64,000 nt of DNA from Cyanidioschyzon merolae. Taxonomy: Eukaryota. Shown here one piece after another: positions 524 through 54,333 of this stretch (position 1 is the stretch's first letter; every line of letters starts with the position of its first letter). The stretch lies in assembly GCA_000091205.1 (NCBI GenBank), contig AP006500.2, one strand, 5' to 3'. Position numbers and translations under genes: made by a program. The notes beneath the pieces are model-generated. The model did no database searches, was not told the DNA's origin, and saw nothing but the letters and a program-made list of their open reading frames with translations.

Positions 524-1517
524 GCTAGCATTTGAGCGAGATTGCTGCCGAATCATCGCCGTGCCCTGGCCCAGTGGATATCGCATGATGCATCGTTTAC
601 AGCGTTTCAGTCATGATCCTGGGTGGTGATTATCCCCGCCGGAATACCTCAGGACTAGATCGCGGATCGTTGGAAGCTACGCTCGCGTCCATCGCGTGTA
701 CCATGCGCTGCAAAAGTGGTGCTTGTCTGCAGCTCCTCAAAGAGCACATGATCGCTTGCTGTGCTGCGAGCACCACGCCGCCGGCCTCTGTCGGCAAACG
801 CGCTCAAAGGCGTACTCGCGACAAGCATGAATTCAGCAGGAATATTGGCGCTGGTTGAGGCACTGCGACTGACTATCGAGAGACCAATCTCAGCAACCGC
901 AGCATGCGTCGATCACTGGGGCGCAGCTTAAACTCCAGCAGCGATGCGGCAGTGTCAGAGCCAGACCTGCAGACTAGTGGACAGAGCGCAGCATGCCTCG
1001 TTCTGGATTTCGCAGAAGTACCCGCCAGAGACGCTTTTCAGGGTAGCCAGTGGCGGATCGCGTCTATTTCGCTACCGGGAATTCGGACGGATTCCGCGTC
1101 CAGTCGACCGGGGACGGTTCACGCTCTCCACTCGGACGTCAACGCGTTTCACTTTGGTGATGAAGGTGCTGCATTCATCGACCGACCAGTCTGCATGACG
1201 ATTCGAAGAACATCGGGCGGAATCTTTGATGCATACCTCTGGAGCATGATTCGCAGAGGTGTACTTTTTTGCGGGTCGTCGAGGTGGAGCGTGTGGCGAG
1301 AGCCACATATTTGAGCGACCTCGCACCGGGCGTGATCCAAGTCACCATTCGGCTGATGCTCAAGCGTGCCTCGCGTACCCGACATGTCGTTGCTCACCTT
1401 CGTGATGCTGGTGTGCTTCTGTGGGTAGCGCACTTGCGCCCGTTTGCGAAGCGTAGCGGACCTTGAGGACAAATGGCACGCTCCAGCAGCCATGCGCTTG
1501 CATAGGTCATGCATTCA

Positions 1518-2177
1518 TCATGTGATGCTTTCCAAAGCAGCACCCAGGGCGTGGTCATCAAACACGTCGTGGAAATCCCAGAACTGCACATTCCAGCGGG
1601 GGTGGTAGCGCCGACACCAGCGCTCAAACCCCTGGATATATGCGGGTCGCAGGTGCGCATCCAAAGCGTTCCGGAACGCCACCATGGACTCCTCGATGAT
1701 CGAGGGATCCATGAGAATGCTCCCCGACAACGGATCCAGCATCACCTTGACCGGAACATGCTCATAACCCCAGAAAGGCAGTTTCGTCCCGATATCGCCG
1801 ACCGCTGCCCATCGGAATGAAAACGGCACATGTCGCTGGAACGCTGCAGCGAAAGCGCGATTCCCGACTCGAGGCGACCCAAAAGTCACACTCATCACCA
1901 GATCCGATGACAGACGCAACGACTGTGAATTCTCAAAACACGTCATATCGAGGGCAGCGATGCTTGCCAGAGCCCCGCCGAGAGAGTGACCTCAAAAGAT
2001 CACCGGTTTGTGGTTGCAAGATGCACTATCCAAGGAGTTCATCGCACTACACGGTTGCGCTTCGCTCGCATCTGCATCTGCTGCTGCTGCTGCTGCTGCT
2101 GCATAGGTCAGTTGAGCGTTCTGTGCAGTCTCTGCTTCCCAGCGGCTGGGGTGCCGGCTGCACTGGGGTCCGCGCAT
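1518..2177 (-). pseudogene. class-3 (fungal-type) lipase, disrupted
   Basis: ORF 1518..1946 contains the Lipase_3 motifs 'GSPRVGNRAFA' and 'GHSLGGALASIAAL'. An in-frame TGA (1992-1994) occupies the conserved position directly before GHSLGG ('KPVIF*GHSLGG'). Reading frame changes upstream around the (CTG)8 run. Confidence 0.5.
2071..2100. repeat. (CTG)8 microsatellite
   Basis: direct reading: ctgctgctg... run. Confidence 0.9.
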
Positions 2178-2680
2178 CGAGATCCTATCAGGTTGAGGCT
2201 TTCCGAACGATACCGTCCATCAGGAAGCTTATCCATGATCCACGAATGCATCCTGATGTGCTGTTCAAGGAGCAGGTTGCTTCTTTCCATGCATAGCTCA
2301 TGCACCGCTGACAGGTGCCGCGTACGGACGCACGCACGGCTCGCGCAAAGCCGCCCAGACACTCAAAGGCGTCTGCGAAACCGTTCCATCAAATCAGACT
2401 TGACGCTAAAACGACAGCACTGTTCTGGTTGCAGCGTAACGTGGACGCGTCCGTATCGGAGTCGAGGTCTGGTCCTCGGGTCCAAGCAGCGTCGGTGCAT
2501 CGCCTAGTACCTGGTTCAAACGAGGGAACACCTGCGTGGATGCGGCTTCATGTGGAGTGTCCTATTTGTACAGTATACGACAACGATGCGCTGGAGAGGA
2601 TATTTTGGAACAATCATATATATTTAGGACAATAGTCCGCCGAGCGTTTCGGGATTTCAAATGCAAACGCCTCGGAACGG

Positions 2681-5600
2681 ATGCGCCCGTCGGCCGGGCA
2701 CACTGCGCAGCTGCAGCGCGCTCCCGCTCCAAAACACCCTATCGCTCTAGTTCACAAAACACTTCAAGCAATGACGTCTGCGGAAGCGTTTCTGCTCCCG
2801 TTCCATTGGGAAGATGTGGTTCTGGATCCGGACCTCAGGAGCAAGCACCCCGCGAGAGGGCCGGTTGCTCCGCGCTACGCCGTTTCCGTGGACGCATTCG
2901 ACCTCTCCGACCCTGATATGGTACAGAGCGCTGTGGCGCTCGCCTCCGGTCACGTTTCCGACCATGCTGCCAACGCGCTGCTCATACCCGAAGACGTTGC
3001 GGAAAACGAAACCATCCAATGTTTGGACTCGCTTGCCGGTGTCGATGGCGACCAGTCCCTGTCCTGGTGGCTCGCTCCTCTGAGCGACCGAGCAGCAGCG
3101 CAACTGCGCGCTCTTCTTTGGTGCATTCATCACTGGTGCGGACTGAATGACTTCAGCATCCGGGCACAGCTTTTTACTTGTGTTCAACACGGGATCAAGC
3201 AAGCACTACACGTCATGCGGAACGCAGCCCGCGCTGAGCTCAGTGCAGACCCCGCAAACCGAACCGGTACGGATACCTGGCGCTCTATTCTTCGCTTGGT
3301 GGCGTTCGTTAGCGCCCACTGGCTGCAGGCCGTGGAGCGTGAACTTGCTGAGGACGCTGTCGCCTTAAGTCTGCCGCTTGCCGGTACCTCTGGTGGCAGC
3401 AGGGTAACTCGTCTTGAGAGCAGCTCGGCGCGCACAGGCACCAATCAAGGCGGCACACCGGCGCGCTGTCGGGCGAAGCGCCCCAACCTTCGCAAGAAGA
3501 CGTCTCGTTTCATCGTCGAGTCGGATGCTTCCGATGAGGAATCGCCAGCATACGCAGAAGACCAGGCAACGGTATGCACCGGGGACTTGCCTGGAGAACG
3601 CGAGCATGCTGGTCCAGAGAATTCATGGGCTGAGCTCTACGAGGGCGAGCGCGAGCGTCTCCTAGAGGCATTCGGTGAGCTCCTGCGCCAAGAAGGCATC
3701 ATCAAACTCGCCTTTCCCTCAGCAATTCCCGAAGACGCATACCTCTACCTGTTTGTGCGCACGTCCTGTGCCTTGCTCGAGTCGCGTCTGGTATGTCGCA
3801 AGGAGCGAGCACGAGCGCTGCTCGTTGATCTCATCGTAGAGTGCCTCTCGCGCTACGGACAAGCTGGTCGATTGTGTCCCATTCTCGTTCACAGTTTGCA
3901 ACGGTATGAGCATGTAGCCCCGGTTCTCGTCGATATCGTGGTGGTGCTGTGTCAAGATGACGCTGACAGCGGCAACACGCAGCGCCGCAGCGGCTCTAAT
4001 ACCAGGGACGCGCTCCAGGAATCGTTGACTCGTGGCGATGTACCAGCGCTCTCCGTCAGCCAAGCCGGACGCGATGACTGCATTCGAGACCTGATGACGC
4101 AAGTGACCCAGATTCCTATTAGTGAACTCGCTCGTGACAATACCTGTGCGCGTCATGTTGCACGGTTTCTCACGGAGCTTGCAGAGCGCTCTCCTGGGAC
4201 GCTGGTTCCCTATTTTGCTGCATGGATTCCGCATTTCGATGGTGAGGCATACTCCGTTCGTAACGCGCTTGTGCAAGCCTTTGGATGTGTCCTGAAGCAT
4301 CTGGCAGAACACAGGAGCCCTGAGGCTGTACAGGCGCCTCACCAGGAGCCACACGACGAGTCCATGACGCTCCAAGAGCGCCTGCTGCAGTTGCTCTTGC
4401 GACGCCTGGATGACGTGCATGCTTTGGCGCGCTCGCGGACGCTCCAGGTCTGGCAACAGCTCATCGAGGCTCGTTGTGTACCCGTCAGCTTGTATGCTAC
4501 CCTGGCTGCTCAGGTCGCGCAGCGGCTGCAAGACAAGTCGATGCACGTACGCCGTGCTGCCCTGCAACTTATTGCCGTTGCCATCCGGTTGAACCCGTTT
4601 GCTGATCGTCTGCAGCCGGCATTGTTTATACAGCGCCAAGCTCAGTGCCTCCGTATAGCGCCCGATGACCCCGCCTCAACGTTCGAGATGCCCTTCGCGT
4701 TAGCGCAAGAAGGTGCTTCTTTCTATGCGGGCGCAGCTACTTTTGCGGAAATTCTCAACAAAGCTATCCCGCTGGTCAGCAGGCTGTGTCGTTCCCGTCA
4801 GAACGGTGACGTGCTCGATGCCATTCGTGTCTTGTGCACAGCTTACCAGTTCGAGGTGCCAGCTGCTGTGGCTGAGGCACCCAAGCAGACTTTACGTCTG
4901 GGTTTATCCCGGGAGGAAAGCGTTCAGACAGCAGCGCTCGATGCCTTTTACACCATGTGCTTCGTTCTGCCGCTGGAACAGGTCTTGCGCTCGACAAAGC
5001 AGCAACAAGATATGGCACTCGCGACAGAAGCGCTGCAGACCATGGGTGTCTTGGCCATCACCAGATCCCTGGTGTCGCTGGTCGCTCGGGCTACTGTTGG
5101 CGAACTGACCTGCTTCGAGCGACTCTTGCCAGCATTGTATCGCAGTGAGCGCCTCGCTCCTTCGGTCCTGCAGTGCTGGTGGGACGTGCTCGCCGGTCGA
5201 ATTCCCGGTGCGAACTTGGAACTCATCCGTGGATGCACCTTCCTCATTCAGTGCGTCGTATCCGCAAAGCCACTCACCAAGTCGCAATGCGAGCTGCTGC
5301 GAGAGCACGCGTTTACTGATCTGGTGACTGCCCGTTGGGCCTGCGCGGCACTTACCCACGGTCTAGCAGCCCAGTCGTTAGACTCCGAAGATGGACTGCT
5401 TGTCGGCAAGGTCGAGGCGCTGCTCGTCGACGACACCAGGAGTGTGTACTGGCCAGCAGCCGCTCAGGCCGCTGTCACATGCCTCTTCCATTGCAGCCGG
5501 GATCCTTCGCAGAGCGTTCATCGGGTTCTGCAGCGCCTTGTGGAGCGGCACCAGGTTGCACAGCAACAGGCGAGAGGCTCGCAAGGCAGCACGGCTCATG

Positions 5601-26567: not shown

Positions 26568-29264
26568 TGTGCTGGACTAGGCGTCTGTGAGCGACCACGC
26601 AGAACTCTATCACCAGCGCAAGATCCGCGCCAAGTATCTGGCCCAGCGCTGTAGCAATTATATCCGCAAGAAACACCCTCAAAAGCTCGTTCAACCAGGC
26701 TCGGCTGGGTGCCACCTCAAGAGCGCCCTGTGAGCGTGTACTGCCGTCGGTTCGCACGGCACCAATTGCCCCTCTACCGCGGGATCCCGTGTCTCAGAAT
26801 AGGGTCCGAAGTACCTGCGTTGAAAAGTCTGAGGTTACTTTCACCTCAGCGCTTCGCTAACTCGGTGAGCGCTCAGAAGAGGCGCTGCGGCGTTACCGCT
26901 ACGAACGTGGTCCACCGCGAGGTTCGTGTTCCCCCTGAAGACCGTCTCGACGAGCAGCCAAGCTCGCGTTTTCGTCTCTCCAAGCAACGTAAAGTTTCGC
27001 CCTCCAAAACAGACAGAATACCTCTGCAACGAGGCTTTGGCACGTTGATGAATTCCTTCACGAGCGTTTGCGTTTCAGAGCGTTCTGCACAGCACCAGCG
27101 CTATGCCCCGGAGTACTTACACCACACGAAGGCGTTTGAGCAAGCGCGAGCACAGTCCAAAACTGGATCAGGCACTGCTTCACCTGACAACTCGACGATG
27201 CGCGAGATGAAAACGCTCGGTTCCTGAGTCGATACCAAACGAAAACAAAACCTGTACGCGTTGTGCTGCCTTGCCGCGCTACAAACAGTTTCGGATGCGT
27301 GTTATTCGGGGCGAGGCGTCGTGCGCCCAGCGTGTGACACGTGTCCGTACACACGCATCATCGCTTTGGCATGGACATGCGCGAGGTACGATGCAACTGG
27401 GCGAATTTTTTTTTGTTTCACGGAACGTTTCCATGGATCAGGGATTCCAGATTGCGGGATGCGTATTGGTATTCGGAAAATGAGGGAAAATGCTGCATTC
27501 TACGTCCAAGTTCCATGACCAACACTTCCTCTAGGATATACTGGTCGTTTCGTACGTTCTATCGTGCACCGTGTACCTGCCTTGCTGCACGCGCCTTGGC
27601 GCGTATACCGTTGGTGCGGATGCAGTACGGAGACAGAACGGGATTGGCGTGCCGATGAGGGCTTCCGCTCGAGGAATGTTAGACCCGATACGGAGTCAGA
27701 ATTCATTATGATTCTGGGGGCCTGCAAGTTGCGCAGACAGAAGTACTTTATGCGACAGCGCGAAGCGAGATACTAGGACTCAACTGCGACCGGGGCGACG
27801 TCCAGACGCAAGCTACCCGCTCCTAGTCGCAGAAAGAAGTGCATTTCAGACGAGTTGCTGAGATACCACCAAAGTACCCGCCATTTGTGGAGCATGAAGC
27901 ACTCCACAGACAGACTCGTGCGGCTCGCGGGACTTTCCATTTAAAAGGTGAATCTTCGACAATACGGGATCCTTTTCTTCCCTGCAACGCTTGCTGCAGA
28001 GCTGGGAAGAAATTGCTCTCTCGTTGCTAGGTAGTAGTTCGGTTCTGTTTGTTTTTGCCAGTTCTTCGACATGGAGCGCAGCCCTGATCGCACATCGCCG
28101 ATGGCAAGAGGCGGTATCTGCGCGACCAGGTGTGCCTCTGTGCTGCATGGTTAGGGATACTGGTTGCGCAAATGGCAAGCAAGTTGTTGTCGCTGTTGCG
28201 TTCAGACCGACGTCTGCGTGCTCGCACTCCCACACCGGCGCATGGGTATGGTAGAGCATTTTCCAGTTCCGTGCGTTTGGAATCAACAGTTGATTTAGGA
28301 AGTCGTCGCAAGTACCTACATTGAATGCAGAAGCAGGAGCAGGTGTTGCTGGTTTTGGGAGCCGCCGTCCGACTCCCGCGAGCGCCTCGTAGCACCAGGT
28401 CTTGGACCGTTGACGCAAAGGCACGGCGTGATTTCTCTGCGGCAAGAGCTGTCTGTCGGGTTTCGGCATGCCGGGCACACTGGACCCTAGCCAAATCCGG
28501 ACCGGGTCGGGACGAAGCTCCCGTATGGCGCACTTGTGTCTGAAACGGTCTGCCTGCGCATCCGGAAACGTTCTCGTTCAGCTGCGCGTCATGTCCAGAT
28601 GATACCGGGCACCCGTCGAGCCGCCACAGAAACACGTCGTCCATCTGGGCACGCTTCAAGAGAAATGGGAATGTAGAGGCTGCTAAATGCCAGAGATAGC
28701 GCGCATTTACGTCCTGTTCCCACGAAACCGAGATCTATGCCGCGTCTTTTCCTTCTATCTCACCCGAAGGCACAACGTTCCAGCGGGTCGGATACGTCCG
28801 TGATACCTCTATCGACAAAGAGAACGCGCGAGTGCCACGGTAGGCGCGTATGAACCGTCCGGAAAAGAAGATGCGGACCATCCAGTGGCAGTCTGGAGCC
28901 TAACACCCACCACCTCAATTGCATACAACGACGATGACGGCTGCCAGAGGCACCCCGACCGAAACTACTTTTCATCAGTGACATTGCAACAACGTATTGG
29001 CCGTCCCCAAGGTATGATACAGCAGCAAAGCGGGTCCATTCGCAACGCGCACACGTCCTGCACGCACGATAGCCACGCATCGCCCGTGCGGCAACGGCAT
29101 CGGATGCCCGCAGCAGCGCCTCGTTTGCCGGATCGCGCGAAACAGGCCCTGGTGCACTCCCATATTGTTCTATTTTGTCCATGCGATCCTATGTGCGTGC
29201 GTGCGTGCGTGCCGCTCGACCTTATCCATGCGATCGGATTCGTGTGCGCGCGTGTATGTGCGGC

Positions 29265-31655
29265 TCACGCCCGCGTCCGCAGTGCAGATGAGGATGACGA
29301 TTCCGAAGTGCTCGCGCCCACGCTGCGTTCCTGATGCATAGAGACTGTTGCCGTAGAGTCTCTGTGGCAGGAATGTACCGGGTGCAGTTGGCACACGGTT
29401 CGATGCTTCGCGAGCGCTACCCGCGTATCATATGCGAACACACGAACGAACTCGTCGATCGCAAAAGTATTCAGTTCGTTGAGAGCGTACATGTTCCGAA
29501 ACGCAGCAACGGCCCGACGGTAAGCGCACGGGTCATAGTAGAATCCCTGCAAGGCCAAGGAGTGGGCTCGTTGCATATCCAGCCTACCGTGCACGGCAGC
29601 AGCAGTCTGTGCGGAGCAGATTGAGCATGAAGCCTGGTCTGCCACAAAGGCACGAATGTAGGCCTCCTCGCCGATGCCGCAGCACACATCCGGTGGAAAT
29701 CGAGCCATTAACGCAGCCAGTCGATAGACACCAAGGGCGTACAGCTTTGACAGCGACTGATGCGCATTGCGCACCAGCGCAATGATTCTGCTGATGCTCG
29801 GAATTTCACGCGTCAGCGGAAGTGGCGGTATCGAAGCAAGCAACTGTCCAGCATGTTTGATTTCCCGAACGGTTGGCGCAAGCTCCTTAAGATCGGTCAA
29901 CACGGGGCGCTCACCGTTGGTCCGCAGGGACGGGTGCGTCCACAGCGACGCGGCAGGCGCACTGCCGTCCGCCAGCGGGTGAGCAACAGCATCTGCAACT
30001 GACAATGCAGACGGCGCATGAGGTAAATCCCCCTGGTGATGCGACGCTTCGGATGCAGCGGATGCAGAAGCATTGGTCCTCCCTACAACCTTTTGTATTC
30101 CGGGTGTTTGCTGCGCAAACTGCTGGCAATGCGTCAGCGATCCCCTCTTCTGCTCAGCCTCGGTGCATTCCAGATGATTTCCTTGGAGCATGCGCTCGCC
30201 GCTGCGATTCCGCGCTGCTGAGCGCGCTGCCGGCGCCATAAACAAAGGTGACCAGGCCTCCTCTGGTTCAGTGCCCTGAGAATCGGTTCGCGAGCACCGC
30301 CGATCAACCGTTGCCGTCGCGCTTGTCTTGAGGCATACCCGCGAATACGGGTCCGTCATGTCAACAACGCTCGATTCCAGATTGGACGCATTTGTACAGA
30401 ATGAACGATCGTTCTCTTGAACACAGAATCCGTGGACGGCGGCGACCATGAAAGCCTCTTCAGAAGCGCTCATCAACCCCTGTTCGCGTGGATGCGTTCC
30501 ATGCGATACCGAAAAAACGGAACAGGCAGGATCCCCGACGTTTCCGGCATAGATGCGCGATAAATCTTGATCCATGCGGTGCGTGCTTTCCCATCCGGGG
30601 TATTCGCCAAGCACAAAGTTTGCGTCCGTGGACGCAACCCGCTCGTCTTCGTTATCTTCGGCGGCGATCGTGCGATGGCTCACTTCACCGTAACCCGAGC
30701 TGGCCAGGGGCCATGCTGAAAGCATTGGCATCCGCTCCCCCAGCCAGGCATCCTCAACATTGTCGTATAGCGTCTGATCCGCCATCAGACGATGCTCGCT
30801 CGACACCCCAGAGTTCGTGGTATTCGCCTGGTCATCCACGACAACGCTGTGGCAGCGATCCCTTGGCGATGAGTGCTCACCTTCATCGGCATCGTCCCCT
30901 TCTGAAGGAAAACAAGTCCAGAGATTGGCTGGGAGTCTCGCAGATGCGTACGTTGTTTCTGATTGGTCCCCTCCCGGTACCGCCTGCTGATACTCGTGTA
31001 ACGGTGCGAGACTGACTGCCGATGCGGAGCGCTGGAGTCTCCCGAATCGAGCTTGCTCGCCGCTGACGATGGGGCCCCTGCGACGCCGACCGCGACCCGG
31101 CTTACCCACGCCGCTGAGAGACCATGAAGCATCTCCAAACTGTGCCCAGGAAGCGCTCCGTGGAAGCGTATGCGTCGCACCGCGAACAGATACCCTAGTC
31201 TGGCTTCGGCTACGGGCCAGCGAGCGCTCGCGCCCTTGAGGCTGCGTGATGCGGCGGTTCAGTGTTGCAGGTGTCGCACGACTACGACTGTTTTGAGCGC
31301 CAGTGCCGAACTGGCGACTTCTCCCAGCAGCGGATCCACGATCGGCTGCTTTGCGCACCTCATCTGTTGTCGGTGCTGAAGACGTTTCTTCCCCGTCCAC
31401 GATCGGTCGCCGGTTCGTGGACGCACCCTGCGCGAAGCCTTTTCCGAAACCCCGGGGTGCCGCACTGCCACGGGTTGCGTTCACCGCCAAATCTCCGTAG
31501 GAGTAGGTCACCCCGTCGATCACAAGCGCAAGCTTCCCCTTCTTCCACTTGACCCCACAAGCGTTGCACAGTGTCTTGGCACCCGTAGGTCCCGCCCGCC
31601 ACAGGGGCGTGTCGTTCGTCGAGCACGATATGCAACGCAAACTGTTCGAAACCAT
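29265..31655 (-). CDS. GATA-type zinc-finger transcription factor
   Basis: 796-aa ORF starting 'MVSNSLRCISCSTNDTPLWRAGPTGAKTLCNACGVKWKKGK', the canonical GATA finger (CxxC-x17-CxxC with TPLWR and LCNACG). Confidence 0.7.
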   Translation of the reverse strand: MVSNSLRCISCSTNDTPLWRAGPTGAKTLCNACGVKWKKGKLALVIDGVTYSYGDLAVNATRGSAAPRGFGKGFAQGASTNRRPIVDGEETSSAPTTDEVRKAADRGSAAGRSRQFGTGAQNSRSRATPATLNRRITQPQGRERSLARSRSQTRVSVRGATHTLPRSASWAQFGDASWSLSGVGKPGRGRRRRGPIVSGEQARFGRLQRSASAVSLAPLHEYQQAVPGGDQSETTYASARLPANLWTCFPSEGDDADEGEHSSPRDRCHSVVVDDQANTTNSGVSSEHRLMADQTLYDNVEDAWLGERMPMLSAWPLASSGYGEVSHRTIAAEDNEDERVASTDANFVLGEYPGWESTHRMDQDLSRIYAGNVGDPACSVFSVSHGTHPREQGLMSASEEAFMVAAVHGFCVQENDRSFCTNASNLESSVVDMTDPYSRVCLKTSATATVDRRCSRTDSQGTEPEEAWSPLFMAPAARSAARNRSGERMLQGNHLECTEAEQKRGSLTHCQQFAQQTPGIQKVVGRTNASASAASEASHHQGDLPHAPSALSVADAVAHPLADGSAPAASLWTHPSLRTNGERPVLTDLKELAPTVREIKHAGQLLASIPPLPLTREIPSISRIIALVRNAHQSLSKLYALGVYRLAALMARFPPDVCCGIGEEAYIRAFVADQASCSICSAQTAAAVHGRLDMQRAHSLALQGFYYDPCAYRRAVAAFRNMYALNELNTFAIDEFVRVFAYDTRVALAKHRTVCQLHPVHSCHRDSTATVSMHQERSVGASTSESSSSSALRTRA

Positions 31656-31949
31656 AGCCGCCGTACACGCACAGACTCAAACAAACGCTTCGTTTTGATC
31701 GCACGCGGTACGGCAACGGCCGAAGCGAGCCCAGCTTCGCACGAAACGAAGAAGTTTCGGTGGCGTCCGCCGCTTACCAGCGAGCAGCTCCGCCCCCAGC
31801 AATAACGGACGAGTGTTCGTTGCGGCTTGTAAGGTACTTGTTAGCAATAACGACCGCAGCAACACAAGGATTGCGCAAAACCCGGGACCCTGAGCAAGCA
31901 CAACGCTACCGGCAACGAGAAGGCCGCGAATCCGACGCCGCCACGGGCG

Positions 31950-33830
31950 ATATTCGGAGGTGGTGGCGGCTGCGGCCGCCCGCCGTTGCCAGGATTTCTG
32001 GCGGTACGCCTCCCGGTCTACTTGGACTAGGCACCTGCTGCTGATTTTGTTTTCTGCTTATATGATATCACCTTAAGAGGTTGCCCGACAAAGCTGGCTC
32101 TCATTAGCTCCGGGGGTCGCTTAATCATCAACACGCATCTTTCTATATTGATAGCGGCGTTAAAGTCTCGGTTCACAAACTCTATACGTTGATTGCCGTC
32201 GGTAGTTGTACTCACCAGTGCGAGTAGTCCAGGAACTTTTGCCCTGCTTTCCATTTGCTGTTTGGTCAGCGCTCCGTACTTTTTTATATCCTCAGAGTTC
32301 CACTGGCACTTTTGCATCTCGACCCTTTGGATTGTACACCTCGGCTCGTGGTGTGTATGTATGACGTTCGGAACTCATCTATCGGTATTGTGAGAAAACG
32401 GTGTGCGTACTCGTTGTACGCTCGTGTCGACGGAGCGGGCGTAGACTCTTTTTCGGACGCCCAGTGCCCTGATCCGTACGCTACTATAAGCCTTTGTCTC
32501 TCGTCTTCGTTCAGGGCACTCAACTGGTTGAAAAAGTTGGCAAATGCACGCTGCTTCCCATAGTATAAGTTCATGTGCTGACGAGCCCACCGGGCGGCTT
32601 GGTATACTCCTTTCACAGCTCCTCGTCATGAGCAGCGCGAAGTGGTATGAATTCTCAGAGGGCTCGAAAGTTCGCTCCGCGACTCGTCATTTTGCTGAAC
32701 TCCTCCCTGCTTACATCGAACTTCGGACTGATCTCTTTCATGATGCCGTAAAGGGCTGCGGAGTCGATTGTCACAAAATGTGCATTGATCTCGCATAACG
32801 GAACGACATGGAAGCGCTTACCCGGAAACGCAGCCATTCGTTTCTCCGACTCTTCATTTGCTTGCACACCTGGTTCCATCTCCGCCTTGCGTTCGAGTTC
32901 TCGGTCCAAAAACACGAAAGGGCGCAGGATTAGGCGATAGCATCTTTCTTCATCTTTTTTCAACGCTGGCATCTTTTTGTGCTCAGTTGACAAACCCTAG
33001 GACCGTGCGGCGCTCTTGGATGGCCACATGGAGTAGAGAAGCTTCATTCCTTCTCCTGCGTGACGTCTTCCTGTCGACGAATTCGATCTTCTGTTCATGC
33101 TGGCGATCGTCCGAAATGCCATTGATGATGGTCCGTATCCTTTTGCGAGAGAGGCGCGGGTAGAGTCCAAACATGGAACGTATCATGAAACGTTCGAGGT
33201 TCATGTTCAAATGGTTTTTCAGATTCGTGAGACACTTTTTAGACCCGTATTCATACATATTATCGTGACCCCTGTATCGAGTACTGTTGGAGCGGAATTT
33301 GGCGTAATTTTCGTGGAGGCCCTGCACTCGCTCATTTCTCCTCGACATTTCATATGTGCCCAGTATCAAGTGGCGAATGAAGGTCTTGTTGAAAAATTCC
33401 TTCGGAATCTCGGTTGTTTCCATATGCGTCACGTCGCGATTCGTCTCCCACACCAAATGCACGAGTCCTGAAGAACCGTTTCGAATGCTACTGGAGTAGG
33501 ACGCCACACGCTTTCTGATAGTCTCGTCCATCCTTGTCTCGTACGGATCCTTGCAATGTCCAAGAAGACAGGGTTTCACTACCATCTCGATGCACTGTCG
33601 TCTTTCTTGCAGCCATTGACGTCTGGCCTCCTGCCTTAGCTTCTTCGTGTTGTCTCGTTCATCCGGGATCGGCTCTGTTTTCGTTTCTTTCCGTCAGCCG
33701 GCGACAGTGGTCCTCCAGGATCCTCCACTTCCATGTCCATAGCTTGCCTTTTTACTTTTGAAAAAGAACGCACTTTAGACACTTCTGCTATAGACCCCGG
33801 AAAATCACTTGAGTAGACTATACTGGAGAT
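31950..33830 (-). mobile_element. old, internally deleted copy (copy 3) of the Fanzor/TnpB-like element
   Basis: Four -strand ORF fragments in different frames (32027..32317, 32284..32616, 32655..32993, 32983..33585) are homologous to the N-terminal, central and C-terminal parts of the nuclease in copies 1/2. RuvC-III 'FVNRDFNAAINIERC' and 'IPIDEFRTSYIH' are present. The RuvC-I region is deleted. Flanks show diverged homology to the copy-1 termini. Confidence 0.55.
32027..33585 (-). pseudogene. TnpB/Fanzor-like RuvC nuclease gene remnant (frameshifts plus ~250-aa internal deletion)
   Basis: see mobile_element 31950..33830. The N-terminal 200-aa ORF is ~50% identical to ORFs 49441..49707 and 48676..49398 of copy 1. 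Confidence 0.55.
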
Positions 33831-35541
33831 TAAAGTACAATGGAGATGAAAAACTATGCTTCGATATGACTTTAACGCGTATGCACCTTGTACGTTAGAT
33901 AAACACGCTAAGTGTAAGGATCGCATTTCCCTTCAATCACGAGATGCGCTTCCTATCTCACGCCTGCCAGATATGATGCTGCGAGTATCGACTGCACTAT
34001 ATAGAAAATAGAACAGAAATTATCCAATAACTAGCAACGAGATTGGGATTCCTTTCCGTCTCTACGATAAACGTTAAAAGGAGGAAAACGTTTCCACACG
34101 TTCAAAAGTCTACCGTATAGGCGGAAGGTCCAGCGACCCGGAAGAGTGCGCCGGGCTCGTGCTCCATACCCCCAATAGCAGGTGCTTTAGAGCGATCTGA
34201 GCAGCTCGTATCGAGCGCAATTCATTCTGGGATTCGAAGCGGGTAGTACGCGCCTGCGCGTCGCCCTGGTCTCCTTAGATATCGATTCGCGCTGTCGCAG
34301 GCAGTAGGTCCGTCTGCGCAGCTTGCAGGCTCCCAGCATGATCATTAGCCCTGATCCCGTGTCAGGTGTTGCGTTATTCGAGTCGACACCCTCAGTGGTA
34401 TGGCGAAGCCGTTTTGTCTCCGTGCAGCACCCGCTCCAGCGATATAGGCGCTATGGTAGGTTCCCAGGACAGGCACTTGGCTTACGATAGAACGCAAGAA
34501 ACGACCGGTGCGTCCGAAAGAATGCATAAGTAATGGAGCTTGAAGGTAGATGCTTCATGATGGACGCTTTCCAGATCATCAATACCCGTCCCGCAGCAAG
34601 GGATCCATGGTCACGATAAACGTTTCGTCATCTGAAAAAATGACAGCGGCTGCACGAAAGATTGCGCAAAGCGTTGGCTGATCGCCGCATATTGTTTGTT
34701 GGATGCGAGCATGTTGTCGATGCGTCTACATGGGTACGGCAATGGCAGCGCCTATTTGTTTGAACGCACTATGATTCCTGAAAGCAAGTCTGAGCGGCTA
34801 GTCGCACGACCTGTGGACTTGTGCAGCATGACGAATGCTGGTCTTGATACTGATCGTCATCGCACCGTTGGGGTTCCCAGGCTCGGTTCAACGATCCCAC
34901 TCGATTCGAAAAATCGATTCTGGAGCGTCCAAGCAGCACGTGCCTACTCAAGAAACCCTCATGGAAGGCACCAGCGCGCTTCTTCGCTCCACAGAGCCGA
35001 CGAAGGTCAGTGGCAGCAAGGCGGTATCGATGCTGATATCACGGGCGGAAGATCTCACGAACGTAAACAGCCCCCGTTTAGCCATTTTTGACACGGAGGA
35101 AGCCCTGTCACAACGCCACGGTTCCGCCCAGTGTGCCAGTGAAACACGGAAACCGCGATGCATGTTTCCGAGCTTCGCACATCTCATCAAGGCTTTCACG
35201 TTTGTTCTGCGTAGTCCTCTGAAAAATTTCCGGTGTGCCTTGGAGCCGGCCCCGGTTTCCATTTACAAAATAGAGGATTCTGTAAGCCAAAGGTCTTCCT
35301 ATGCGTACAACAGCGCTGCTGGTCGGATGTGTTTCAGCAGTATCGAACACCTTGCGCAGCGTTGCGAGGCGAGAGCCCCGTTCACGGCACCCGATGCGGT
35401 CGATAGCCCTGTATCATCATCCACGTGAGCATCCCGCACAACATTAACCGGCTTCGCAAGGCAGCACTAACCGTGGAATACGCACCGGCATCCGGTTCAC
35501 GGACTCTGCAAGATACATTCACTGCGCGTCAGTGCAGGCCG

Positions 35542-47228: not shown

Positions 47229-47396
47229 TCGAACGACGCCAACGGTATACAGTAGTGGCGACCGGCGCCCTAGACGAAACGTCTCCAACTGACGTGCAGA
47301 CGCCTCCCCGCCTTTTTGGACCGGCCACCTACTACTGCTTCCAACTTTTTCTCGTATAGTTCGACTTTGAGAGGTTGTCCAATAAAGTTCCCTCTT
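47229..47396 (-). ncRNA. candidate omegaRNA scaffold region (overlaps the 3' end of the ancestral nuclease ORF plus a short flank)
   Basis: The 3'-terminal block is far better conserved between copies 1 and 2 than the upstream coding sequence. It ends in a hairpin with an 8-bp perfect stem in the solo copy at 54379-54401. The position matches where TnpB/Fanzor omegaRNAs are encoded. No direct evidence of transcription. Confidence 0.25.
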
Positions 47397-49707
47397 CATG
47401 ACTTTGGAGGTGTTTTCTCCAGCACCGCACATCTCCGTATATTGATAGCGGCATTAAAGTCTCGGTTCACAAATTCCATACGTTTCTTCCCATTGGTAGT
47501 TGTACTTACTAGTGCACCTAGTCCTCGCACTTTCGCTCTACTTTCCATTTGCTCCTCCGTCAGCGGTCCATACTTTTTCATATCCTCAGGGCTCCTCTGG
47601 AAATTTTCCATATCCACTCTCTGAAGTGTACAACCCAGCTCATGGTGTGTGCAGGACGTTCGAAACTCATCTACAGGTATTGTAACAAAACGCCTTGCGC
47701 ACTCCTTGTACGTTCTTGTCGTTGGAGCTGGCGTAGTTCCTTTTTGGGTCTTCCAGCGCCCTGCTCCATACGCTATTACGAGCCTTTGAGTCTTGTCTTC
47801 TTTGAGGGCGCTCAACTTATTGAAAAAGTTCGCGAATGCCCGCTGCGTCCCACCGAATAGATTCATTCGCAAACGAGCCCACCGGGGCTTGATATACCCC
47901 TCCCACAGCGCATCCCAATGGGCAACACGAACTTCCATGAATTTCCGAAAAGCTTCAAAGTCCGCGCCTCGGCTCGTCACCTCGCTCGAAGATTCCAGGT
48001 GATCCTTCATTCCTGCATTCCATGCAGCAATTTTCTTCCTTGCATTCATTATACCGGACTCTCGATAGTATCTTGCTCTCGAGAACCTCAACAAATGCAT
48101 GTCTTTCAGACGTAAGTTGCCGTCAATGCAATCTTCCGCACACTTTGGTGCTGCGATGGTAATGATATTCGTGTTCCCAGGGTCCATGCCAATGACAAAG
48201 TCGTTATCCTGCACTTTCTGCGCCGCAGGACCCGCCTCGTTCTTTTCTTCATGCTTCGTCGCGTCAAGCATAAAGGCGTTATCCTGCACCTCCTGCATCA
48301 CAGGATCCGCCTCCTTCCCAACTTCATCCTTCGTCACATCAACGATAAAGTCGTTACCCTCAATCTCCTGCGCCACAGGATGCTCCTCTTTGTTTTCTTC
48401 ATGCTTCGCCGCGTCAACGACAAGCTTGTTATCCTCCACCTCCTGCGTCGCAGGTTCCGCCTCCTTCTCATCTCCATCCTTCGCCACGTCAACGAGAAAG
48501 TCATTATCCTCCACCTCCTGCGTCGCAGGATACACCTCTTTGTTTTCTTGATCCTTCGTCACGGGTGCAGCCGAGTGAGGGACTGGCCGATCTCTCTTCA
48601 ACCGCCGATAGTGTGCACACAAGGCTACTCCATCGGTTTCGATCATCCCAGTGAACAACTTTTGCTTGCTCACTCTCAGGCGTTTGAAATCGAAGATGTT
48701 CTTCCAGTACGTCTTCCGGTTTTCACCGGAGAATTCCTCCCTGCTGACACTGAACCCCGGACTGATCTCCTTAAAGATGCCGTAAAGGACGCCGGAGTCG
48801 ATAGTCTCAAAACTTGAATTGATCCTGGACAACGGATCAGCGTGGGAGCGATTCTCCAGAAGCGCAGCCTTCCCTCTCTCCGACTATTCGTTTTTTCCAC
48901 ACCCGGCTCCATGTCGGCCTTGCGTCCGTGCTTTCGGTTCAGAAACATGAAACAGCGCAGGATTAGTTGATAAAATCTCTCTTCGTGTTTTTTCATATTA
49001 GGTAATTTTCCTGTTGGACTGAGTAGCCCCAAGACCGCACGGTGCTCTTGAATAGTCGCGCGGATTACGGAAGCTCCATTTGTGCTCCTGCGTGATGTCT
49101 TCTTATCGACAAATTCGATCTCATCTTCATACTTTCGATCGTTCGTGATGCCGTTGATCATCCCCCATATTCCTTTGCGAGAGATGCCCGGGTAGAGTGC
49201 AAACACGGCGCATATCATGAAACGTTCCGGGTACATAGTTAAATGGTTCTTCAGATTCGTGAGGTACTTCTTCGGCCCGTAGGCGTAAATACACGAGTCA
49301 ACCCTGTATCGGGTACGCTCGAAGCGGTATTCGGCGTAGTTTTCGTGGAGAGCGTGCACTAGCACATTTTCCTTCCGCGCTTCCCCTGTACCAAGCATCA
49401 GGTGACGAATAAAGGTCTTGTGGAAAAACTCGTCTGGAATCTAGACCGTTTCCATGTGCGCCACATCGCGATACATCTCCCTCGCCAAATGCATCAGTCC
49501 TGACGACGTCTTGACAATACTCTTGGAGTACGAGTCGACACGTTTTTTGATAGCGTCCCGCAACTTTTCCTTGTAGGGATGCTTGATATGTCCAAGAAGA
49601 AAGGTTTTCACCACCATCTCGTCGTACAGCCGTCTTCCTTGCCGCCTTCGACGTAGGGCCTTACCGTTTCGGTCCTTCTTCTCTTCTTTTTGTTCTGGAC
49701 TCGGCAC
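47396..49707 (-). pseudogene. TnpB/Fanzor-like RNA-guided-nuclease-family gene (RuvC-I, Zn-finger-like, RuvC-III), disrupted
   Basis: Three collinear -strand ORFs (49441..49707, 48676..49398, 47396..48832). RuvC-I '[21 protein letters not shown]', 'LVIAYGAGRW', 'VTIPVDEFRTSCTHHELGC' and C-terminal 'FVNRDFNAAINIRRC' match the TnpB D...E/ZnF...DxNAAxNI layout. In-frame TAG at 49441-49443 ('METV*IPDEF' where copy 3 has 'METTEIPKEF'). Frameshift near 48700-48830, where copy 3 reads straight through. Stop is premature relative to copies 2 and 3. Confidence 0.7.
48197..48565. repeat. ~72-bp minisatellite (5 units) inside the copy-1 nuclease ORF, encoding 24-aa repeats directly N-terminal to RuvC-I
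   Basis: Units 'gtcgttatcctgcacNtcctgcgccgcaggacccgcctc...catgcttcgtcgcgtcaagcataaag' repeat head to tail. Protein repeats '[25 protein letters not shown]' etc. The last unit becomes '[14 protein letters not shown]'. Copy 2 has a single unit. Confidence 0.75.
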
Positions 49708-50151
49708 TATATTTGGGTTTTTTTGGCAGCCGGCGACACTGGGCCTCCAGGATCGTCGACTTGCTATTTACTAGCTTTTCCGTTTTTTAGTTTTTTTTTG
49801 AAAAAGAACACTCTTTGAACGCTTCTTTTATATTCTACGAATAAACACTTGACTAGACTTGTTTGAGGGCTGGAACAAAAACGAACTGAAAGACTGTACC
49901 TGGCTAAGACCTCAACAGAAAACCAACTTTTTACAGCTGAACACCACGCTATTGATACCAATCGAGTTTCCCTTTAACGGCGACGCGGCGCTTTCGGAAC
50001 TCGATCCGCCGCATCTCCCGGCTGGATCCTGCTGCGGTTCAGAGACCGCAAGTCGAAAAGTGTGTGGCTGTAGTTGAAGGCAAATATGGTGCACCACGCG
50101 GCAGTAAACAACAGAAATAGGTTGTGAGACGCGACAGTCGTGCGATGAAGT

Positions 50152-50943
50152 GTGTGGCGGCTTCTGCAGCGCTCGTCGTCAGCCACTCTTTTAAAACATA
50201 TTGTCGTTCTTCTATCAACTGTGTTTGCAGAAGACTCTACTGTAAAACGTTTGACCAGGTGTGATTCGAAACGATCGGAAATGTTGCGCAAAGTATCCTT
50301 AGTGTTCCTGGTGACCCTGCTCTACGTGCTCGCTGCAGTTGTGTCGAAGCCGGTGCGTGGGCTCTCTCAGAGCAGCACGATTGCCGAGCTGCTCGCTGCG
50401 TCTCCAAGCTCGTACCTGCAGAACGCGCTCACAAGCGGTGCGTTTCTCGTGAATAACTCAGCCGGAAGTATTCAGTTGTTTGACGTTACACAGAACTCGT
50501 TGTTAACGAGCGTGGGCCTCTCTACCCTGATATCCACGTTGAACAAGTGCGGTATCCAGGAGCTGCACGTGCAGACGGACGCGATCGAGTACGCGTACGT
50601 TGTTGAGGGTGAGGGCACTTTCACGCTGTGGTCGTCTAACGGCTCGGTGGTATTGTTGAAGGCCCCCTTGAAGCCTGGCGACGTGGCGATTATTCCAGCC
50701 GGCTGGCCGCACTTTTTCACCGGGTCCGAGACGTCCACGACGCCGCTGGTCTTTGTCTCGACATTCACCAGCGGAGAGCCACAGGTTTATTTCCTGGCTG
50801 GTGCTGGGAATCTATTCGCGAACGTGCCATCCGAGGTCGGTAGCAGTCTGTTTAATGTTACCGCGTCGCAGTACGGATCGTTTTTCAGAGCGGAATCGAC
50901 TGTGGGTGTCGTCTTTAATGAGACCTGTTTGGGGAATGCCTGA
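50152..50943 (+). CDS. secreted cupin (germin-like) protein, tentative; probable start at the Met near 50282 (signal peptide 'MLRKVSLVFLVTLLYVLAAVVS')
   Basis: 263-aa ORF; 'PGDVAIIPAGWPHFF' resembles germin motif 2 (PxGxxHxxxN-like) and 'ELHVQTDAIEYAYVVEGEG' motif 1; N-glycosylation-like sites; lies between the two young Fanzor-like elements. Confidence 0.4.
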   Translation: MWRLLQRSSSATLLKHIVVLLSTVFAEDSTVKRLTRCDSKRSEMLRKVSLVFLVTLLYVLAAVVSKPVRGLSQSSTIAELLAASPSSYLQNALTSGAFLVNNSAGSIQLFDVTQNSLLTSVGLSTLISTLNKCGIQELHVQTDAIEYAYVVEGEGTFTLWSSNGSVVLLKAPLKPGDVAIIPAGWPHFFTGSETSTTPLVFVSTFTSGEPQVYFLAGAGNLFANVPSEVGSSLFNVTASQYGSFFRAESTVGVVFNETCLGNA

Positions 50944-51094
50944 ACGATTTGAAATCGGGAGATATCAGTGCTGCTTGCGAATGCTGTCGGGGATGTAGCT
51001 CTGCTGCGCTCCGTTGGTTACATGGACAGGAAATTTGCGGATTCTTAAAAGATAGATACGTGACGCCGCTGCTAGCGAGCCCCTTTCAAAACAA

Positions 51095-53523
51095 AAACGC
51101 TGCCGCTATCAGTACAAAAGTGGCTACCAACGCGCCCTAGACGAAACGTCTCCAACGGACGTGCAGACGCTTCCCAGTCTTTTTGGACCGGCCACCTACT
51201 ACTGCTTCCAACTTTTTCTCGTATAGTTCGACTTTGAGAGGTTGTCCAACAAAGTTCTCTCGTGTCCACTCTGGAGGTCTTTTCTCCAGCATCGCACATC
51301 TCCGTATATTGATTGCAGCGTTAAAGTCTCGGTTCACGAATTCCATACGTTTCTTGCCATCGTTCGTTGTACTCACCAGTGCGAGTAATCCCCGAACTTT
51401 CGCCCTCCTTTCCATTTGCTCTTCCGTCAGCGGTCCGTACTTTATTATATACTCAGGGCTCCTCCGACGCTTTTCCATCTCAACCCTTTGAAGTGTGCAC
51501 CCCAGTTCATGGTGTGTAAACGATGTTCGGAACTCATCTATTCGTATCGTAACGAAACGCCTTGCGCACTCCTTGTACGTTCTTGTCGTTGGAACTGGCG
51601 TGCTCCCTTTTCCGGGTACCCAGAGCCCTGCTCCATACGCTACTACAAGCCATTGGCTCGTCCCCTTTGAGGGTGCCCGACTCATTGAAAAAGTTGGCAA
51701 ATGCACGCTGTTTTCCGCAGTACAGATTCATATGCAGACGAGCCCACCTGAGCTTCGCGTACTCTTCACACACCTCCTCGTCATGAGAAACGCGAATTTT
51801 CATGAATTTCGGAAGAAAAAAAGAAAGTTCAATCGACGGCTCGTCACGTGCCTGATCGCTTCCAGATTCTCCTTCACTCTTGCGTTCCATTTCTCACTTT
51901 GATTCCTCGCATTCATCATTGCTTGTTCTCTGTACTAACTCTCTCTCGAGAACTTTAAACGACGCATGTCGCTCTGGCATAAGTTGTCGTCAGCGCCATC
52001 TTCCAAACGTTTGGGTGCTACGATGGTTATTACATTCGTGGTCCCGAGGTTAAGGCCGACGACAAGATCGTTATCCTGGGGATTATACGTGCCAGGGCCC
52101 GTCTTCTTGTGTTCGTGCTTCGGCAAGGGCGACAATGTAGATGAGGTAGGACGATCTGCCTTCAAGCGCTGATAGTGTACACATATGGATTTCCCATTGT
52201 AATCGATCGTCCCCGTGAATGCCATTTTTTGCTCGTTTTGAGGCTCTTGAAATCGAAGATATTCTTCCAGTACGTCTTCCGGTTTTCACCGGAGAATTCC
52301 TCCCTGCTGACACTGAACACCGGACTGATCTCCTTAAAGATGCCGTAAAGGACGCCGGAGTCGATAGTCACAAAACTTGAATTGATCCTGGACAACGGAT
52401 CAGCGTGGGAGCGATTCTCCAGAAGCGCAGCCTTCCCTCTCTCCGACTATTCGTTTTTTCCACACCCGGCTCCATGTCGGCCTTGCGTCCGTGCTTTCGG
52501 TTCAGAAACATGAAACAGCGCAGGATTAGTTGATAAAATCTCTCTTCGTCTTTTTTCAAATTAGGTAATTTTCCTGTTGGACTGAGTAGCCCCAAGACCG
52601 CACGGTGCTCTTGAATAGTCGCGCGGATTACGGAAGCTCCATTTGTGCTCCTGCGTGACGCCTACTTGTCGACAAATTCGATCTCATCTTCATGCATGCG
52701 ATCGTTCGTGATGCCATTGATAATTGCCCAGAATCCTTTGCGAGAGATGCCCGGGTAGAGTGCAAACACGGCGCATATCATGAAACGTTCCGGGTACATA
52801 GTTAAATGGTTCTTCAGATTCGTGAGGTACTTCTTCGGCCCGTAGGCGTAAATACACGAGTCAACCCTGTATCGGGTACGCTCGAAGCGGTATTCGGCGT
52901 AGTTTTCGTGGAGAGCGTGCACTAGCACATTTTCCTTCCGCGCTTCCCCTGTACCAAGCATCAGGTGACGAATAAAGGTCTTGTGGAAAAACTCGTCTGG
53001 AATCTAGACCGTTTCCATGTGCGCCACATCGCGATACATCTCCCTCGCCAAATGCATCAGTCCTGACGACGTCTTGACAATACTCTTGGAGTACGAGTCG
53101 ACACGTTTTTTGATAGCGTCCCGCAACTTTTCCTTGTAGGGATGCTTGATATGTCCAAGAAGAAAGGTTTTCACCACCATCTCGTCGTACAGCCGTCTTC
53201 CTTGCCGCCTTCGACGTAGGGCCTTACCGTTTCGGTCCTTCTTCTCTTCTTTTTGTTCTGGACTCGGCACTATATTTGGGTTTTTTTGGCAGCCGGCGAC
53301 ACTGGGCCTCCAGGATCGTCGACTTGCTATTTACTAGCTTTTCCGTTTTTTAGTTTTTTTTTGAAGACGGACGCGTTTCTTACGTGTCTACTATAAACCA
53401 CGAAAAACACTTGACTAGATATGTTTGAGGTGTGAAACAAAAACGAACTGAAAGACTGTACTTGGCTACGACCTGAACGGAAATCCAACTTTTTTCGGTA
53501 GAACAACACGCTACTGATCAGGA
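51095..53523 (-). mobile_element. Fanzor/TnpB-like element, copy 2 (~2.4 kb), more decayed
   Basis: Six -strand ORF fragments in shifting frames (51137..51706, 51534..51890, 51935..52225, 52162..52395, 52368..52595, 52662..52961, 53004..53270). 5' half nearly identical to copy 1 (ORF 53004..53270 = ORF 49441..49707, 88/88 aa). 3' half about 80-85% identical, with the full-length C-terminus '...FVNRDFNAAINIRRCAMLEKRPPEWTRENFVGQPLKV...RFV'. Confidence 0.65.
51137..53270 (-). pseudogene. TnpB/Fanzor-like nuclease gene, copy 2, with multiple frameshifts and the same in-frame TAG as copy 1
   Basis: RuvC-I 'DNDLVVGLNLGTTNVITIVAP', 'LVVAYGAGLW', 'IRIDEFRTSFTHHELGC', 'NRDFNAAINI'. TAG at 53004-53006 identical to copy 1. 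Confidence 0.65.
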
Positions 53524-54333
53524 TGGCGTTCCCCTTCGACGAAGGCATGCGCATCGTGTCAGTTGACTGACTGATCTCCCAGTTGCGCTCATTTAGCGCA
53601 ATGCATCCACTGCGCGCGACGCTACTCCGATCGATGAAGGACACGTGTCCGATACCCCGCCTTGGCACATGCGTGTTCGCATCCCACTGCAGCCAAAATA
53701 AAGTATCGTAGATCGCAAACTCACGTAGAATGATCTCTTGCTACAGGCTCTGTCGCTGGTGCCCATTGCAGTACCGCCCTGACATACGTGGAGATGTAGG
53801 GGCCTGGCACGATACCTCGCGATGCTTCTAACAAAAGCATCGCGTTCTCTGCGGCTTACACTTGTGTGGATAAGGTACACAACACTGTACTCAATAGAAA
53901 TTTCGTTAATTTTATTGATCGTATATAAACAAGACACGGAATGATTCCTGACCAAGGATATTCGTTTAATCAATATGCTTGTTATGCATGCCGCACCGAC
54001 ACTGGAATAAGGACCTGAACTGAAATTTGCATCTATCCGGCGTCATGGGCTGGAACTGATACCCGTTCAAGTCATTGCCATCCTGCCGTGGTTGTCCAAG
54101 TAATGGTGCCTGCTTCGTCCTCCGGATCCGGCGATCTTGGCAGAGGCAGAGCACGTAGGTAGCGTCCAAGTCTGCCACGAGGTTTGAGCCTTGCATCTCG
54201 CCTGGCACGATCGTGGCACTTGACAAAAGCGCATACTGTATTCTGGTCTACTCTATCAGATTATTTTCAAGAGCCTAACCCGTACATCGAGCCCGAACGA
54301 GGCACCCCTGGAAAGAAACGCCTTTCGAAAGTC

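Follow-up and report, generated by a model that had tools for sequence, protein, structure and literature searches.

The 64,000-nucleotide (nt) stretch of the Cyanidioschyzon merolae 10D genome analysed here (the window), taken from around CMR487C in a record of 1.25 Mb, carries three copies of a Fanzor-like element, all on the minus strand and referred to below as copies 1, 2 and 3. Copy 3 is dead and is an unremarkable member of the Fanzor1 transposon family CMe-1A, which was already in the literature. Copies 1 and 2 are assigned to the same family by blastn to its published consensus, and all three are dead. Taken as a whole, we consider it very probable that copy 3 is a long-dead CMe-1A insertion just upstream of a GATA transcription factor gene, that, measured against the family consensus, the three copies are of about the same age, that the internal deletion in copy 3 was inherited or gained by recombination, as another locus bears the identical junction, and that copies 1 and 2 are alike in their 5′ halves through local gene conversion or duplication. 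An earlier note on this DNA had instead taken copy 3 to be ancient and copies 1 and 2 to be young.

CMe-1A was described as a Fanzor1 family of C. merolae (Bao & Jurka, Mob DNA 2013, PMC3627910) that numbers some 150 copies, with an identity of about 80% between each copy and the consensus. The consensus measures 3169 bp and holds a one-exon open reading frame (ORF) for the 734-amino-acid (aa) protein CMe-1; the family lacks terminal inverted repeats, its age is given as ‘old’ although some copies are still intact, and its 5′ 635 bp are equated, at 95% identity by the paper's statement, with the non-autonomous element TE-N2_CMe (PMC3627910). The family, its Fanzor1 nature, its age, the single-exon ORF and the consensus protein were therefore all in print in 2013, including the long residence in this genome that the earlier note had rightly deduced (PMC3627910). 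We took the consensus from the supplement of that paper and aligned it to the window by blastn, compared the three copies with one another by blastn, repeat search and MAFFT alignment, and drew relatives from 80 metagenome loci (L-numbers below) and from database proteins (P-numbers).

Alignment to the consensus places copy 3 from 34632 to at least 32006, where it is 5′-complete, internally deleted and non-coding. Its first block (34632–32696) matches consensus nt 2–1950 at 81.2% identity and its second (32689–32006) matches nt 2401–3080 at 79.1%. Against copy 1, blastn aligns 33819–32697 with 49859–48731 (73.4%, E = 0) and 32689–32006 with 47979–47300 (74.3%, E = 2e-123), with equivalent matches to copy 2, and the blocks agree in order and orientation by both blastn and MAFFT, with which the repeat search concurs. 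The collinear third copy that the earlier note had proposed is thus real. The 50–65% identity it gave to copies 1 and 2 holds for amino acids (56% to copy 1, 51% to copy 2) but not for nucleotides, which are 73–75% identical, and the limits it set, 31950–33830, fall about 800 nt short at the far end. Homology to copies 1 and 2 reaches 33952, and homology to the consensus continues to 34632, so that copy 3 is the only one of the three with the true family 5′ end. This 5′ non-coding module (33953–34632, about consensus nt 2–690) includes the part equated with TE-N2_CMe, and at least ten metagenome loci have DNA collinear with it immediately 5′ of their Fanzor ORF. It is followed by an N-terminal coding remnant at 32697–33740, corresponding to CMe-1 aa 1–348 and a helical REC-like region, by a C-terminal coding remnant at 32006–32696 covering the RuvC-II/III region, and by a 3′ tail (31920–32005) that is degenerate or partly lost. 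Of the final 89 nt of the consensus (3081–3169), no more than 44 can be aligned there, at 73% identity, whereas copies 1 and 2 keep this terminus at 86–87%.

Copy 3 has lost its coding capacity. Relative to the consensus ORF it is interrupted by four indels that are not multiples of three (about 33681, −1; 32979, +1; 32596, +2; 32360, +2) and by at least two or three in-frame stops, among them a premature TGA at 32655–32657 where the consensus has CGG and a further codon-aligned stop at 32615, with candidates at 32985, 32029 and 32020. The catalytic RuvC triad is also incomplete: the codon for the first Asp is deleted, while those for the Glu (in ‘IDEFRTS’, 32382–32362) and the third Asp (in ‘NRDFNAAINI’, 32173–32144) remain. 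The 444-nt deletion, which takes the WED hairpin and RuvC-I, together with the four frameshifts, the several stops and the degenerate 3′ tail, leaves copy 3 incapable of producing a Fanzor1 protein. In comparison with CMe-1A as published, copy 3 shares the genome, 79–81% nucleotide identity across the 5′ end, the coding region and most of the 3′ portion, an ORF that is likewise in one exon, the old character of a member some 80% identical to the consensus and the lack of terminal inverted repeats, and it differs by these same four kinds of damage. The family paper covers neither single copies nor this deletion allele (PMC3627910).

Copy 1 (47237–49983; consensus 702–3145, 82–89% identity by block) and copy 2 (51082–53576; consensus 671–3167, 82.2%) are broken as well. 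Both read ‘METV*IPDEF’, with a TAG at 49443–49441 in copy 1 and 53006–53004 in copy 2, and both carry the same frameshift, a 1-nt deletion at about 48896 in copy 1 and about 52459 in copy 2. Altogether copy 1 has two frameshifts and four stops (that TAG and those at 49766, 48886 and 47398), and copy 2 has five frameshifts and five stops. At the first site copy 3 has the Glu codon GAG (33411–33409) inside ‘METTEIPKEF’ (33423–33394), as the earlier note had observed; at the second it reads straight through, in the peptide ‘...[41 protein letters not shown]’ (32819–32697), although the deletion responsible for the break in the other copies lies just upstream of the 48700–48830 interval in which the note had sought it. 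Copy 3 keeps the ancestral Glu codon and frame where copies 1 and 2 are broken because the sites of the lesions differ between copies. The description of copy 3 as preserving the ancestral frame is accordingly apt for these two places and fails for the remainder of its ORF, given its own frameshifts and stops.

Intact relatives and the CMe-1 protein read both places continuously, as ‘IETVE(I/V)P’ and ‘GKRFNVVPLCNIKSHFVTIDS...SREEF’. Since the 2013 consensus gives the ancestral residue and frame, the conclusion that copies 1 and 2 are mutated rather than intron-containing follows directly from it, and the uninterrupted reading of P0005, P0107, P0114, P0120 and one-exon CMe-1 agrees with that part of the earlier note. 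One might still suppose that introns bridge the stop and the frameshift of copies 1 and 2, or that the segment absent from copy 3 is a Fanzor intron and copy 3 a processed (retro-)copy; the segment is, after all, excised cleanly and in frame, and a second locus shows identical boundaries. We give this idea almost no credence. The boundaries are not GT...AG but TTC/ACC...ATG/AGC in the consensus and TTC/TCC...TCG/AGC in copy 1, and on these sequences we rejected it. The segment moreover encodes the most conserved catalytic motif (the invariant Asp, GxDPG) and is in frame in all intact relatives, the published CMe-1 gene model has one exon (PMC3627910), the TAG of copies 1 and 2 differs from GAG by one base, with no sequence added, and copy 3 retains a 5′ module that does not look transcribed and has no poly(A) tail.

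Homogenisation of the 5′ halves of copies 1 and 2 explains why both have the TAG and the frameshift. A block of 632 nt is 100% identical between them (49802–49171 and 53365–52734), and it lies within a homogenised stretch of about 1.1 kb at 97–100% identity that extends to about 48700 in copy 1 and 52263 in copy 2. By blastn the 5′ parts are 94% identical overall and the 3′ halves 78%. Another strain, with an orthologous contig (L075) 99.1% identical overall, has two blocks that again match each other, at 625 of 626 positions, yet each of them differs from its 10D counterpart by 2.4–2.8%, against 0.9% in the flanks. This pattern indicates ongoing gene conversion, or concerted evolution, between the tandem copies. 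The size of the identical block had raised the possibility that it was TE-N2_CMe, which we rejected because alignment to the consensus puts TE-N2 at the upstream 5′ module.

Homogenisation bears directly on the ages of the copies. In a reading along the lines of the earlier note, copy 3 would have inserted distinctly earlier, and copies 1 and 2 would stem from recent transposition of a master that already carried mutations; the raw identities appear to fit: copy 3 is 73–75% identical to copies 1 and 2, which are themselves 94% identical in their 5′ parts and 100% over the 632 nt. Yet over ORF nt 906–1950, the N-terminal part, the three copies are equidistant from the published 10D consensus (copy 1, 83.6%; copy 2, 83.8%; copy 3, 83.5%), the 78% identity of the 3′ halves of copies 1 and 2 argues against a recent duplication of the whole element, the concerted evolution visible in the related strain accounts for the likeness of the 5′ blocks, and the lesion counts are alike, with four frameshifts in copy 3 and five in copy 2. 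Measured against a consensus that we built from metagenome loci, copy 3 also ranked first in divergence among 56 non-redundant copies (24.9%, where the median was 11.9%). That consensus, however, derives from the 80 best matches to a query led by P0107 and is biased; comparison with the published 10D consensus shows the effect to be largely one of sampling, and we rejected the ranking.

Two observations weigh against equal ages. Over ORF nt 2401–3080, the C-terminal part, identity to the published consensus is 79.6% in copy 3, as compared with 89.0% in copy 1 and 86.7% in copy 2, so that copy 3 may have inserted somewhat earlier or derive from a source lineage that had diverged further. In addition, the ratio of non-synonymous to synonymous substitution rates (Ka/Ks) lies near 0.4 whichever copy is compared with a consensus; much of the divergence therefore arose under selection in active lineages, and it offers no clean insertion clock. 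On balance, copy 3 is typical of a family that is old throughout, with a 3′ half that is at most somewhat more diverged, and we judge a distinctly ancient copy 3 beside young copies 1 and 2 to be unlikely.

The deletion by which copy 3 lost RuvC-I spans 444 nt (consensus nt 1950–2393), is in frame and removes CMe-1 aa 349–496, including the catalytic Asp431, joining GAGGAGTTC to AGCAAAATG between positions 32697 and 32696. On an AlphaFold2 model the deleted segment comprises a WED β-hairpin, a disordered repeat linker, RuvC β1–β3 and the helices that follow. The RuvC-I motif of copy 1, ‘GMDPGNTNI’ (48190–48164), has no counterpart in copy 3. The earlier note was correct that the segment is gone, but the loss is a clean in-frame deletion and not erosion in place. 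The same junction, GAGGAGTTC joined to AGCAAAGTG, is found at the metagenome locus L002 and its counterparts from other samples, L003 and L004, and because it recurs at this second locus the deletion is not a private decay event of copy 3. L002 comes from a close relative of 10D and encodes P0107, a protein of 562 aa whose ORF is open there; the P0107 locus occupies nt 422–2110 of L002, with the deletion junction at about nt 1465.

Just downstream of the junction, copy 3 and L002 have derived AAA and CGA codons in common. Away from its neighbourhood we detected no excess of shared derived sites (copy 3 and L002 rank 21 of 55); enrichment is confined to the vicinity of the junction. Among the 80 loci fetched, copy 3 and the P0107 locus are the only carriers, a count to be read with some reserve in that, within 10D, the search for copies and for the junction covered the window. 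Given two loci only, and a sharing of derived sites limited to the surroundings of the junction, we rejected a clonal ‘deletion sub-family’. We read the deletion as a non-functional allele that was moved between copies by recombination or copied once.

The open ORF at L002 invites a different interpretation, in which the deletion marks a propagating and possibly selected nuclease-dead Fanzor1 sub-lineage, with copy 3 its decayed member and P0107 its living one. The junction is identical at both loci, the length of the deletion is divisible by three, Ka/Ks between copy 3 and L002 comes to 0.47 over the whole length and to 0.28 over the C-terminal part, and the closest relatives of P0107 are only 80–84% identical to it. 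Differences between strains at the P0107 locus are nevertheless those of neutral evolution: one is synonymous and 9–10 are non-synonymous, a 1-nt insertion falls at codon 6, and L004 has a premature TGA. The deletion also takes three of the five core strands of RuvC, so that the domain is unlikely to fold, and the absence of excess derived sites beyond the junction fits transfer by recombination better than a clonal sub-lineage; the junction, moreover, turned up at two loci only. We therefore hold such a sub-lineage to be very unlikely, and domestication of P0107 was rejected on the ratio of synonymous to non-synonymous differences and the stop in one strain. Slighter still is the chance that the deletion, shared as it is with an open 562-aa ORF, defines a nuclease-dead derivative that has been copied, or even retained to serve in RNA-guided DNA binding or in regulation. 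TldR proteins of bacteria are TnpB-derived repressors, and a nuclease-dead Fanzor1 derivative would, if real, be their eukaryotic analogue.

The gains over the earlier description of copy 3 are three corrections, namely that the element is 5′-complete to 34632, that the opposition of ancient and young copies gives way, and that the RuvC-I loss has an origin outside simple decay. For specialists in transposons there are two by-products, the concerted evolution of copies 1 and 2 and a deletion allele common to dispersed copies. Together these imply that ectopic recombination shuffles segments between the copies of CMe-1A, which makes pairwise identity a poor clock for the family.

Membership of the family in Fanzor1 is supported by both sequence profile and predicted fold, in line with the term ‘Fanzor-like’ in the earlier note. 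Database searches returned hundreds of relatives (1265 cluster representatives at E ≤ 1e-3). A profile of 120 diverse full-length homologues matches the solved Fanzor1 proteins PpFz (9cf0, E = 9.4e-19), SpuFz (8gkh, E = 7.8e-12) and GtFz (9cer, E = 0.009), with an alignment that spans the TDG hairpin, the DPG RuvC-I motif, ‘DEFRTS’ and ‘NRD.NAA’. The breadth of this profile was needed: a narrower one of seven sequences found no match among PDB sequences, and single-sequence Pfam/NCBIfam scans of the window ORFs and intact relatives gave only a faint Cas12f1-like_TNB match at NRDFNAAINI. Among the 120 homologues, D484 and E656 of the RuvC triad are invariant and D725 nearly so. The AlphaFold2 model, made for the intact relative P0005 and not for copy 3, has a mean predicted local distance difference test score (pLDDT) of 84.3 and a predicted template modelling score (pTM) of 0.81. 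Searched with Foldseek (cut-off E ≤ 0.001), all seven significant matches of this model are Fanzor1 structures (E = 1e-15 to 3e-13), weak Cas12 matches rank after them, and the template modelling (TM) score against SpuFz is 0.71–0.73 when normalised to SpuFz. Precomputed annotations list PF26935.1 for many relatives (P0003–P0298), and the distant relative P0298 is annotated with PF07282, the zinc-ribbon/TNB domain of TnpB and Cas12f.

Set against the solved Fanzor1 structures (SpuFz, 8GKH and 9CEU–9CEZ; PpFz, 9CF0–9CF3; GtFz, 9CER–9CET), intact CMe members share the fold, the TDG hairpin, the DPG RuvC-I motif, the ‘DEFRTS’ Glu and the ‘NRDxNAA’ RuvC-III motif, but only 12–15% of the sequence, and the CxxC zinc-finger cysteines that follow DEFRTS are, as read from the sequences, mostly absent from the CMe family; copy 3 departs further in that RuvC-I is wholly gone. 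With TnpB of IS200/IS605 and Cas12f-type proteins the CMe family has a distant RuvC core in common, without a significant direct sequence match, and it differs from them in its eukaryotic host, its larger N-terminal helical region and the absence of TnpA. The closest counterpart of the 5′ ∼680 nt of copy 3 (33953–34632) is the 635-bp TE-N2_CMe, an equivalence that rests on the statement of the family paper.

Intact CMe-1 would, by homology to the Fanzor1 proteins studied, be an RNA-guided DNA endonuclease, programmed by an RNA from the 3′ end of the element. The last ∼170 nt of the family, the putative source of this omega-RNA, are highly conserved, synonymous positions included; the conservation is compatible with either an omega-RNA or a transposition signal. 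The region corresponding to the 3′ tail that is degenerate in copy 3 would be the expected site of the omega-RNA scaffold in other copies. RNAalifold on 26 3′ tails returned a weak structure (−5.7 kcal/mol) with no covariation, and an Rfam search returned nothing. At the nucleotide level the last ∼35 codons and the 60-nt 3′ tail (for example 47385–47237 in copy 1) are unusually conserved across copies, and a possible long-range pairing of CAGTAGT(A)GG with CCACTACTG lies at the family 3′ end, with no covariation behind it.

The host gene next to copy 3 encodes a GATA transcription factor (29265–31655, minus strand; BAM82651.1/XP_005538687.1; GATA zinc finger, E = 1e-13), and its ATG lies about 265–350 bp downstream of the end of copy 3. 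A strain that is 98.8% identical over 3.7 kb (L001) has the insertion too, built in the same way. Besides BAM82651.1, a second window ORF is identical to a C. merolae 10D protein, BAM82645.1 (CYME_CMR487C), and a third shares a 90% cluster with BAM82644.1 (condensin D2). As expected of CMe-1A, the repeat search of the window detected no inverted repeat pairing the ends of copy 3. The only inverted repeat nearby, 27594–27790 with 34260–34456, arises from a separate copy of the 5′ module on the plus strand (27424–28049; consensus 10–632, 78.8% identity), which is presumably a TE-N2_CMe element.

The other copies have peculiarities of their own. RuvC-I of copy 2 (52057–52031) reads ‘GLNLGTTNV’, with the catalytic Asp changed to Asn. 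The disordered linker before RuvC-I in copy 1 (48190–48564) contains five tandem 75-nt units, each encoding 25 aa of acidic character, where the consensus has one; the number of units varies among copies, with four in P0005 and more in P0003. Between copies 1 and 2 the plus strand holds an ORF of 263 aa (50152–50943). About 750 nt upstream of copy 2 is a solo 3′ end on the minus strand, the last 97 nt of the consensus (54412–54319; consensus 3073–3169, 80.4%). The interval between this solo end and copy 2 (53540–54290) is a different repeated 5′ module, which also occurs upstream of the Fanzor ORF in L022, L055/L067, L021 and L049, and L022 matches the whole arrangement as far as 55000 at 82% identity.

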